In this document: positions 546 through 2,140 of the stretch, piece after piece
Numbering within the stretch: position 1 is the first letter of the stretch
Layout: every line of letters begins with the position of its first letter
Program-made: the position numbers and the translations under genes
From: a virus
Lineage: Duplodnaviria; Heunggongvirae; Uroviricota; Caudoviricetes
Reading direction: 5' to 3' (one strand)
DNA: 20,594 nucleotides
IMG/VR virus record: IMGVR_UViG_2526164690_000051
The notes under the pieces: model-generated
What the model saw: only the letters and a program-made list of their open reading frames with translations
Told to the model about the DNA's origin: nothing
Database searches by the model: none

Positions 546-977
546 TCACAGGTGATTCTCCAGACGAAGACCCAGAACACCGGCAATCTCTTCCAGCACC
601 TTGCGCTCTTCCGGCTCAATTTCGCCGTCTGCCTCCGCAATGGCCACCGCCACATCCAGCACATCTTCCGCTTCACGCGTATCGTGTTTCACATCCTCGA
701 TCTCACGTAACGCCGCACGACGACCAATTTTAAAGTTCGTATCCAGCTGACCGATAATGGTTGCGCTAATCGCATTAATTTCCGAGGTAAACGCAGACAA
801 CGCAGGCTGATTACGTAAGACCTGTTCGATCTTCGCTTTCTCGGATGCCTCGCATTCACCATCTGCATAGGCCACCAGGTATGCAGCGTTAATCACCGCC
901 TGTGCCAGATCGCGTTTCTCAAACTTTTTAATTTCCGCTGCCGCTCTGCGGGTTTTCTTTTTGAAGATTCCAAACAT
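546..977 (-). CDS. TerB-like (tellurite-resistance TerB family) protein
   Basis: ORF 546..1049; likely start is the internal Met (MFGIFKKK) at 977, preceded by AAGGAA. Acidic helical repeats (ADGECEASEKAKIEQVL ... AEADGEIEPEERKVLEEIAG) typical of TerB. Lies downstream of the tRNA cluster. Confidence 0.55.
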   Translation of the reverse strand: MFGIFKKKTRRAAAEIKKFEKRDLAQAVINAAYLVAYADGECEASEKAKIEQVLRNQPALSAFTSEINAISATIIGQLDTNFKIGRRAALREIEDVKHDTREAEDVLDVAVAIAEADGEIEPEERKVLEEIAGVLGLRLENHL

Positions 978-1146
978 CGTGACGTTCCTTTGGGTGGGTG
1001 AGCCAACGCCCGGGAGCGATCTGCCCACAGAGAAAGTCACACTGACCACTCCGTAAGCTCACCCCCGAAAGGCTCTGTGGTTGATATGCGCCGGGCGTGG
1101 CGCAGATACAAAAAAGGCCCGCCGAAGCGAGCCTGGAAAATAAGTG

Positions 1147-1223
1147 TGGCGCGTTGTAGTGGAGTCTAACCACTGACCGATTGCTTAGAAGGCAATTGCT
1201 CTGTCCGACTGAGCTAACAACGC
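1147..1223 (-). tRNA. tRNA-Arg (anticodon UCU), phage argO-like
   Basis: Reverse complement folds as a cloverleaf: acceptor GCGTTGT/ACAACGC, D-arm GCTCAGTCGGACAGAGC, anticodon loop CUUCUAA, 3' GCCA. T-loop is non-canonical (TTAGACT), so it may be degenerate. Confidence 0.6.
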
Positions 1224-1236
1224 ATGATGCTGATAA

Positions 1237-1313
1237 TGGACCGCCATCGGGGACTTGACCCCCGCGCAGCCAGCTTCGAAGGCTGGCGCTCTGTCCCGAT
1301 GAGCTAATAGCGG
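1237..1313 (-). tRNA. tRNA-Arg (anticodon UCG), phage argN-like
   Basis: Reverse complement: acceptor CCGCTAT/ATGGCGG (one G-U pair), D-arm GCTCATCGGGACAGAGC, anticodon stem CCAGC/GCTGG with loop CUUCGAA, T-arm CGGGG-GTCAAGT-CCCCG, 3' TCCA. Confidence 0.65.
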
Positions 1314-1322
1314 TATGTAATA

Positions 1323-1398
1323 TGGTGGCCCTTGCTGGATTTGAACCAGCGACCTGGCGATTATGAGTCGCTCGCTCTCACCACTGAGCTAAAGGGCC
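1323..1398 (-). tRNA. tRNA with CAU anticodon (Ile2/LAU-type or Met), phage ileZ-like
   Basis: Reverse complement GGCCCTTTAGCTCAGTGGTGAGAGCGAGCGACTCATAATCGCCAGGTCGCTGGTTCAAATCCAGCAAGGGCCACCA. Canonical cloverleaf with GGTTCAAATCC T-arm; closely resembles my recollection of E. coli ileX/ileY. Confidence 0.8.
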
Positions 1399-1426
1399 GA
1401 GCCAAAAAATAATAATCAGATGAAAA

Positions 1427-2140
1427 TCAATAATCAAGCCCTTGCCTGGATACATATCTGTCTGGCGGGAAGCCATAATAGCGGTGAAATACAGAAATAA
1501 AGTAGGACCTGCTTGAATAACCGCATTTTTCTGCTATAGCCTGTCCATATCCATGCCGGGAACATAACATATTTACAGCAACACGCATCCGCTCTTCCAG
1601 CAACAAGCGACTGAACATGCCCCCTTCATTTTTCAGTTTTGTCTTTAACAAACTCTCACTCATATGCAACTGTAGAGCAATCGCACCAAGCGTCCAGCTT
1701 GCTGATATATCTGTCTGAATTATCGCCCTGACTTTGGCACTTATGCTGGATAAACATCCACTTAAAAACAATGACATCCGTTCATCTGTTTCAAACAGAG
1801 ACAGGCAGGCCATCATAAGAAACATATCCGTGGCCTCTCCGGAAAATCCCTGGCTGGTAATTAAAGCCGCAGCCAACGCAGGATTGTTGGGTTCCAGCAA
1901 CAGGTAAAGCGGAATGTCAGTCAGACGAGTCCTCGTCAGCTTATGCTGACTTTCCAGATATTGACTTACGACGGATTCGCTTATATCGACAATTTTAACT
2001 TTGCCATAATGCATAAGGAAAAGCTCCCTGATGCATTTGGTGGCCAGAACAACTGAGCCTGGCTTAAGTGACAACGTATCCTTTTCAAGAAAAATATTAA
2101 TTGGGGAGCAAACCATGATAACTGAACAGACAACAGCCAT
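1427..2140 (-). CDS. AraC-family transcriptional regulator (AppY/GadX/PatE-like)
   Basis: 237 aa. N-terminus MAVVCSVIMVCSPINIF parallels AppY (MDYVCSVVFICQSF...). C-terminus has the AraC HTH signature (AEKCGYSSRSYFISVFHRYYGFPP). Confidence 0.7.
   Translation of the reverse strand: MAVVCSVIMVCSPINIFLEKDTLSLKPGSVVLATKCIRELFLMHYGKVKIVDISESVVSQYLESQHKLTRTRLTDIPLYLLLEPNNPALAAALITSQGFSGEATDMFLMMACLSLFETDERMSLFLSGCLSSISAKVRAIIQTDISASWTLGAIALQLHMSESLLKTKLKNEGGMFSRLLLEERMRVAVNMLCSRHGYGQAIAEKCGYSSRSYFISVFHRYYGFPPDRYVSRQGLDY

Follow-up and report, generated by a model that had tools for sequence, protein, structure and literature searches.

The cargo slot of a lambdoid prophage from IMG/VR record IMGVR_UViG_2526164690_000051 holds a known accessory block with a PsrB-like regulator, the ileZ-argN-argO tRNA genes and a TerB/TciB-like pair

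The 20,594-nucleotide stretch of viral DNA analysed here (the window; IMG/VR record IMGVR_UViG_2526164690_000051, Caudoviricetes) carries an AraC-family regulator gene, three tRNA genes, a TerB-like gene paired with a small DUF3927 gene, and a small RNA (sRNA) gene. Our analysis indicates with good confidence that this region is a known accessory (“moron”) block of the lambda-like prophages of Escherichia coli strains that are enterohemorrhagic or make Shiga toxin (Stx), placed at the start of the late region, and that it is real but ordinary. The block appears to be bounded by a Q-type antiterminator gene with a pR′-like promoter on one side and by the esterase, holin and lysis genes on the other, with an sRNA of the STnc100/EvrS type that would close the slot. 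Every part has a named counterpart, namely PsrB, ileZ-argN-argO, TciA/TciB and STnc100/PasD/EvrS, and nothing in the block is new. Most of the arrangement was found in 490 complete genomes, and the window is 96% identical to prophage Sp11 of E. coli Sakai over 2.7 kb (95.9% for window 2717..1). The AraC gene, the three tRNAs and the TerB-like gene of the initial annotation were all recovered where it had placed them, at a level far above chance (E 2e-14 to 2e-8 for the tRNAs, 1e-13 to 1e-17 for Pfam); these and the other cargo features lie on the minus strand.

2140..1427, minus strand: AraC/XylS-family regulator, probable PsrB ortholog, 237 amino acids (Pfam; identity to Sakai ECs_2191)
1398..1323, minus strand: ileZ, tRNA with anticodon CAU (ARAGORN, Rfam)
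1313..1237, minus strand: argN, tRNA-Arg(UCG), T-loop GTCAAGT (ARAGORN, Rfam)
1223..1147, minus strand: argO, tRNA-Arg(UCU), T-loop TTAGACT (ARAGORN, Rfam)
1134..1099, minus strand: intrinsic-terminator-like hairpin (1134..1115) with a T run, after argO, and the recombination junction at 1099 (hairpin scan, homology break)
977..546, minus strand: TerB-domain protein, P1 TciA-like, 143 amino acids (Pfam, PHROG)
549..391, minus strand: DUF3927/TciB-like small protein, 52 amino acids (Pfam, PHROG)
379..207, minus strand: STnc100/PasD/EvrS-type sRNA (Rfam), with a terminator-like hairpin at 182..164

The regulator matches the Pfam families HTH_AraC (E 2.4e-13, 50.3 bits against a cut-off of 26.6) and HTH_18 (E 5.8e-10, 39.8 bits against a cut-off of 33.6). 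When ECs_2191 of Sakai prophage Sp11 is read from the same start codon, the two proteins are identical at 234 of 237 residues. The counterpart of Sp11 in EDL933 is the second prophage of O-island 57 (OI-57). It has the equivalent gene in the same context, and no other AraC-family gene is annotated anywhere on the island. Two reviews locate PsrB (z2104) on OI-57 and describe it as a protein that binds the hdeA and gadE promoters and enhances acid survival, and that represses type III secretion encoded by the enterocyte-effacement locus (LEE) via GadE and YhiF. Taken together, the 99% identity to ECs_2191, the presence of a single AraC gene on OI-57 and the placement given by the reviews therefore mark the window regulator as a probable PsrB ortholog, and the attribution of this gene to the PsrA/B type in the initial annotation was borne out. 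As such, the regulator would raise acid resistance via hdeA and gadE, and would lower LEE secretion via GadE and YhiF.

The PsrB locus of Sp11 and OI-57 has the same gene order as the window: a Q-like DUF1133 gene, a 65-residue open reading frame (ORF), the regulator, ileZ, argO, TerB, DUF3927, the sRNA and an esterase-type gene. The loci differ in that the window prophage retains argN, which Sp11 and OI-57 have lost, and in that it is found beside yebY, whereas Sp11 is located at ydfJ. Of 5,426 complete E. coli genomes, 726 had a psrB-like gene, often in two copies, and in 595 the identity was at least 99%. The exact regulator protein was found on at least 1,000 contigs, and all names attached to the protein matches were generic (“helix-turn-helix domain-containing protein”). 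About 35 nucleotides upstream of the gene, in DNA of 37% G+C, lies a perfect TATAAT with a poor −35 element (predicted transcript start near window 2169). The psrB-like gene plausibly has its own promoter and could act in the lysogen. Its codons include ATA for 5 of 15 isoleucines and AGA or AGG for 6 of 13 arginines, and CGA is absent; this use of ATA and AGR is about five times the genome average.

The reviews assign the related PsrA to z1789 on CP-933N (OI-50). No AraC-family gene was found in CP-933N/Sp6 in the current EDL933 or Sakai assemblies; there, what comes directly after the Q gene is a pseudogene or fragment of TerB. The discrepancy points either to an old assembly that joined similar prophages into a chimera or to a mis-cited locus tag. 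PsrA was accordingly left unmapped, and the assignment of the window regulator draws on OI-57 and PsrB only.

The three tRNA genes were called by ARAGORN as tRNA(CAU), tRNA-Arg(UCG) and tRNA-Arg(UCU), and their Rfam scores (72.5 bits for ileZ, 50.9 for argN and 66.7 for argO; E 2e-14 to 2e-8) are all above the gathering score of 29. In the genome that matches the window without mismatches, RefSeq annotates tRNA-Ile, tRNA-Arg and tRNA-Arg, none of them as a pseudogene. The initial annotation had proposed rejection of the two Arg tRNAs by tRNA scanners as a refuting outcome; ARAGORN and Rfam accept both. Over 304 nucleotides, the tRNA block and the hairpin behind it are 93% identical to the ileZ-argN-argO region of the Stx2a phage F451, with ileZ identical in the two, and the F451 genes have the same anticodons, order, spacing, following hairpin and position upstream of the stx slot. 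Given this identity and the shared anticodons, the window tRNAs are ileZ-argN-argO themselves. Hence the order CAU, UCG, UCU reported in the initial annotation stands, while its presentation of these genes as an alternative to ileZ-argN-argO does not. The same three genes are also carried by 933W and Sp5. The window argN differs from that of F451 by G54 and by a wobble pair, U5-G68, and the window argO by a swap of one T-stem pair and by A56 and C59.

ileZ is identical to K-12 ileX at 68 of 76 positions. The acceptor-stem difference at 6:67 is compensated (C-G to U-A), the other stem differences keep standard or G-U pairs, and C4-G69 and C5-G68 are retained. This ileX-type sequence makes ileZ an Ile2-type tRNA, in agreement with RefSeq and the Sakai annotation, which both call it tRNA-Ile. 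An Ile2-type CAU tRNA reads AUA after lysidine modification, and ileZ should thus read AUA in a lysidine-dependent manner, as predicted from its sequence. The tRNA operon would then supply decoders for AUA, CGA and AGA/AGG next to a psrB gene rich in AUA and AGR codons. CGA is used by none of the cargo genes, in keeping with how weakly argN is conserved.

The T-arms of the two Arg tRNAs read as the initial annotation had claimed. That of argN consists of a CGGGG stem, a GTCAAGT loop and a CCCCG stem, with G rather than U at position 54, and that of argO of an AGTGG stem, a TTAGACT loop and a CCACT stem, with A rather than C at position 56. When scored for the canonical T-loop (U54, U55, C56, purine 57 and A58), ileZ conforms (TTCAAAT) and argN and argO do not. 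In canonical tRNA, the residues at these two positions form tertiary contacts, U54 with A58 and C56 with G19. To place these alleles we surveyed 126 copies of the cluster from IMG/VR contigs and reference loci, a sample selected by a 40-nucleotide exact ileZ match. One ileZ sequence was common to 110 of these ileZ-selected copies. For argO there were 23 alleles, with stems 99% paired, and the T-arm ACTGG-TTCGAAT-CCAGT occurred in 75 of 91 genes. Eight argO genes combined a compensated stem swap with a TTCGACT loop, and the window allele is this form plus C56A; the exact window allele was present in 76 E. coli records. For argN there were 33 alleles among 63 genes, with stems 93% paired, and the gene was missing or degenerate in about one third of the related loci, Sp11 and OI-57 among them. 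Each of the common argN loops begins TTC, and the window gene is the TTCAAGT form plus U54G. G54 occurred on at least two argN backgrounds (GTCAAGT and GTCGAGT), and the exact window allele was found in 4 of the 5,426 complete E. coli genomes, which are near-identical to one another. Sequencing error was considered as a source of G54, since the window differs from E. coli O103 RM8385 only by homopolymer indels, and was rejected, as the change is a substitution and is the same in these four independently assembled genomes. The Rfam scores of the window genes are close to those of Stx-phage alleles (argN, 50.9 bits against 54.8 and 45.5; argO, 66.7 against 67–70). A canonical T-loop is not a defining feature of the ileZ-argN-argO family, in which alleles vary. 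The odd T-loops are lineage-specific, rare, derived alleles of a drifting and partly dispensable family and not a special phage tRNA design, and we infer that the changes arose by drift, neutral or mildly deleterious, in prophage tRNAs that are redundant.

Comparison with two Stx phages defines the cargo slot and upheld the view that the block occupies the toxin-cargo position. Homology with F451 begins a short way upstream of ileZ, stops at window 1099 and is found again from the STnc100-type sRNA onward; in F451 this sRNA lies directly behind stx2B. Homology with phiSTEC1575-Stx2k breaks at the same base, 1099, beyond which stx2k follows, and here too it returns at the sRNA behind the toxin B gene. 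The latter phage is colinear with the window at 92% nucleotide identity and has the same 65-residue ORF, a Psr-type regulator (92% protein identity) and the three tRNAs, but it carries the A and B genes of stx2k where the window prophage has TerB and DUF3927. As both junctions match the stx2 cassette, TerB and DUF3927 (window 1098..369) occupy the stx2AB slot precisely. A tblastn search with Stx2A and Stx2B found no match in the whole window, in keeping with the absence of a toxin gene noted in the initial annotation. Among the 126 loci, the position upstream of ileZ was filled by a DNA methyltransferase gene (52 loci), a Psr regulator (14) or directly by a Q-type gene, and that downstream of argO by a gene for a 108-residue protein (19), TerB (19, in three clusters), Stx2A (9) or a holin (9). 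Phages probably swap cargo by recombination at the conserved tRNA and sRNA sequences, which would act as homology anchors.

The TerB protein matches Pfam TerB (E 6.8e-16, 59.1 bits against a cut-off of 24.4), as the initial annotation had supposed, and phrog_632 over its full length (E 1.7e-69). Two ADG...E motifs in the protein are conserved in the alignment, and the longest ORF in its frame starts from a GTG at 1049. The DUF3927 protein matches Pfam (E 6.3e-17) and phrog_1470 and has two hydrophobic segments by hydropathy; its GTG start overlaps the TerB stop codon (546-549), and its C-terminus may be affected by a two-nucleotide homopolymer difference at 404-405. The PHROGs, Sakai, P1 and D6 annotations describe the two proteins as TciA-like and TciB-like (“TciA/TerB-like” for the TerB gene in Sakai), a name that reflects homology only. 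In P1 and D6, a TerB protein of about 143 residues is directly followed by a hydrophobic protein of about 50 residues, near tRNA genes that include an Ile2-type CAU tRNA, and the D6 TciA-like gene has about 51% protein identity to the window TerB. The tRNAs in P1 and D6 are arranged differently, and the genome is that of a plasmid-prophage rather than a lambdoid late region.

The pair was found in 803 of the 5,426 complete E. coli genomes, and TerB homologs were found in 131 phage records, some of them of virulent phages of the N4-like and jumbo types. A query with a TerB alignment gave only near-identical E. coli copies, and other lineages were sampled with TerB queries from Zuri, D6 and Vibrio phage D497. 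Of 252 loci, 249 had a small hydrophobic ORF immediately after TerB, as did 21 of the 22 TerB clusters; the frequency at random positions was 16 of 853 (1.9%). On these data TerB/TciB is a module conserved among phages, with a probable role during infection. Our best guess, made with low confidence, is that TerB and its translationally coupled two-helix membrane peptide form a membrane-associated accessory module acting in infection. The stretch from the argO hairpin to the TerB start contains no promoter-like site, and the genes lie behind this terminator-like hairpin; expression is therefore likeliest through Q-dependent read-through, as for stx2, and TerB/TciB would be expressed in lytic growth when transcription passes the argO hairpin. 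TerZ, TerA, TerC, TerD and TerE were not among the neighbours, with only the tRNAs and DUF3927 around TerB, and as the rest of the ter operon is absent, tellurite resistance is not to be assumed. Against the PADLOC defence models, the regulator and DUF3927 had no match and TerB had a marginal one (E 0.0035) to a candidate model.

In 5 of the 22 TerB clusters, TerB/TciB lies within about 1 kb of phage tRNA genes (lambdoid, P1/D6-like, jumbo phage Asesino, Pseudomonas phage nickie and one other). In the P1/D6-like case, an Ile2-type CAU tRNA with 64–65 of 76 nucleotides identical to ileZ follows TciA by about 280 nucleotides. A simpler explanation than a functional link for this recurrent adjacency in unrelated phage types is that tRNA genes are hot spots of cargo exchange.

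The sRNA at 379..207 is recognised by the Rfam STnc100 model (103.4 bits) and forms the downstream edge of the cargo slot, beyond the coordinates of the initial annotation. Window positions 1-560 are 97.5% identical to the stretch of EDL933 CP-933N mapped for EvrS, an oxygen-regulated sRNA that controls the LEE, and the STnc100, PasD and EvrS sRNAs share the same place just upstream of the esterase-type gene. The F451 copy behind stx2B is only 73% identical to the window sRNA. In four genomes otherwise identical to the window, an insertion of ISCro1 (IS66 family) replaces window 83-242 and truncates the sRNA.

Several observations weigh against the assignment of this region as a PsrB-type accessory block. 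The equation of the regulator with z2104 derives from island position and not from sequence in the PsrA/PsrB papers. The regulator also differs from EDL933 PsrB by three substitutions, A103V, H196Y and I202V, the last two of which are C-terminal and fall within the region matched by the Pfam HTH families. The G54 and A56 changes may render the two Arg tRNAs poorly functional. Finally, five promoter-like sites were found in the region against 5.4 expected in shuffled sequence, and since such hits are no commoner than in shuffled sequence, the transcription scheme given here is a proposal.

Alternatively, the block could be a decaying and silent remnant, its Arg tRNAs nascent pseudogenes and its regulator silenced, for example by H-NS on AT-rich DNA, as the psrB region is 37-45% G+C. 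The near-universal T-loop positions substituted in both Arg tRNAs, the loss or degeneration of argN in a third of loci and the 93% pairing of its stems would agree with this, as would the IS66-family insertion that cuts the sRNA a few hundred bases away in near-identical genomes, and one review reports that type III secretion was little affected when only psrB was deleted. We nevertheless regard decay as unlikely: the ORF of psrB is unbroken, with conservation of 99% or more in 595 records, and 110 of the sampled ileZ copies are identical (albeit in a sample chosen by ileZ itself). Further, the argO stems are 99% paired, including a compensated double change, both scanners and RefSeq accept all three tRNAs, and the reviews credit PsrB with acid survival and with binding to hdeA and gadE. 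The same T-loops might alternatively be adaptive, allowing escape from a tRNA-targeting nuclease or altering modification or processing. G54 does recur on at least two argN backgrounds, and the A56 argO allele is carried by 76 records and sits on a T-stem with a compensated swap. Yet most alleles are canonical (75 of 91 argO genes have TTCGAAT and the common argN loops start TTC), the exact argN allele is confined to four near-identical genomes, its Rfam score lies between those of two Stx-phage alleles, and no known nuclease is cited as recognising position 54 or 56. An adaptive origin thus seems highly improbable.

For TerB and DUF3927, the P1 “Tci” name suggests a lysogenic-conversion module that gives resistance to tellurite, colicins or superinfection. 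The TerB-domain homology and the location of the pair in a classic moron slot are consistent with such a role, the P1/D6 annotation reads [quoted passage not shown], and the plasmid ter cluster is cited for phage inhibition and colicin resistance. But TerB is here alone and not part of terZABCDE (the D6 paper itself remarks that “the operon is incomplete”), no promoter-like site precedes it after the argO hairpin, strictly virulent phages keep the pair without a lysogen to protect, and there is no significant match to a PADLOC defence model, so that we give this explanation a small but appreciable weight. A functional tie to the adjoining tRNA genes, in which a conserved TerB/TciB membrane module shields translation or the envelope from tRNA-targeting colicins or anticodon nucleases, or a late exclusion or counter-defence device trading places with Shiga toxin, is very doubtful. 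As for the regulator, the description “AppY-like” in the initial annotation holds for subfamily resemblance and fails for orthology, which was rejected at 29% identity. The window protein is 37% identical to Sakai ECs_0287 of Sp1 (which we take to be PatE from its position), 35% to GadW, 31% to YdeO, 30% to GadX and 29% to AppY, and its best NCBIfam similarities are to YdeO and GadX, both far below the cut-offs. These relatives are of similar length (242–274 residues) and have a common N-terminal motif and a C-terminal double helix-turn-helix; identities of about 29–38% make them paralogs, not orthologs. PatE additionally shares with PsrB a prophage location and, according to a review, the same reported hdeA target region. 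That the regulator is a functional equivalent of AppY, acting on the app/hya/anaerobic-stationary regulon and not as a Gad/Hde activator, would accord with the shared AraC subfamily (the N-terminal M..VCSV motif and the conserved C-terminal helix-turn-helix region) and with AppY being prophage-encoded as well. Set against the 99% identity to PsrB, and the closer resemblance to PatE and GadW than to AppY, we give this possibility scarcely any credence.

As a whole, the window covers the left half of a lambdoid prophage of Rac-like type, which is integrated beside yebY and the sdsR/ryeA locus and carries the integrase, ralR/RalA, recET, kilR, repressor and replication genes. The features that surround the cargo block are as follows.

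4122..3568, minus strand: Q-like antiterminator gene (Pfam DUF1133 and a weak Phage_antitermQ match)
3571..3542, minus strand: pR′-like promoter, TTGACT-18-TATATT, at the end of the Q-like gene; context, not cargo (10 of 12 consensus matches)
3548..2716, minus strand: P1 immI-like module of c4-a1b1 targets, isrK, C4 antisense RNA and ORF6N antirepressor (Rfam, Pfam, PHROG)
2472..2271, minus strand: 65-residue ORF (phrog_331; RefSeq hypothetical protein), then a terminator-like hairpin at 2288..2271 (PHROG, RefSeq)
2203..2176, minus strand: candidate sigma-70 promoter of the psrB-like gene, ATGATA-16-TATAAT (consensus match)
1437..1409, minus strand: candidate promoter just upstream of ileZ, TTGATT-17-TATTAT (9 of 12 matches)
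69..1, minus strand: 5′ end of a DUF6645/esterase-type late gene that precedes the holin gene (match to the RM8385 gene start)

The block is thus downstream of a Q-like gene and a putative pR′-like promoter, as the initial annotation had it. The pR′-like site overlaps the c4-a1b1/isrK RNA matches, and the immI-like module sits between the Q-like gene and the cargo block. The Rfam scores of its c4-a1b1, isrK and C4 elements are 50.5, 75.5 and 66.7 bits, respectively, and its ORF6N antirepressor gene (3297..2716) matches Pfam ORF6N (E 7.9e-20) and the PHROG anti-repressor family (E 3e-90). A hairpin is present at 3480..3464 inside this unit. The unit is absent from the otherwise colinear Sakai Sp11, and F451 has the same c4/isrK-type RNAs upstream of Q, not downstream as in the window. 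The 65-residue ORF is kept upstream of the cargo slot in most related loci. At the other end, window positions 1-82 are the start of the esterase-type gene in E. coli O103 RM8385 and are colinear with Sakai Sp11.

Alignment of RM8385 to the window gave no mismatches but seven gaps of one base each, every one in a homopolymer of A or T (window 404-405, 6344, 7231, 7918, 7993 and 19614), which look like sequencing error in the source of the window rather than biology. The gaps fragment an ATP-dependent nuclease gene (about 5870-7699) and a cytosine methyltransferase gene (about 7723-8763), and others fall in the integrase gene and at the C-terminal end of DUF3927. The nuclease (so named in RefSeq) and DNA cytosine methyltransferase genes lie at 5868-8757 on the plus strand, opposite to the cargo, between the replication genes and hokD, and this insert may represent a small island of defence-like or restriction-like type within the prophage. 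The RalA antitoxin sRNA accompanies ralR near the integrase end (18249-18427, minus strand), and the host sRNA pair SdsR/RyeA (19988-20132) marks the junction of prophage and chromosome beside yebY.

The region is accordingly best viewed as an ordinary moron block of a non-Stx prophage of O103/O111-type strains, in which a copy of PsrB probably adds to the control of acid resistance and type III secretion in the host. The same recombination slot holds Shiga toxin or other cargo, and these arrangements have already been described or annotated.

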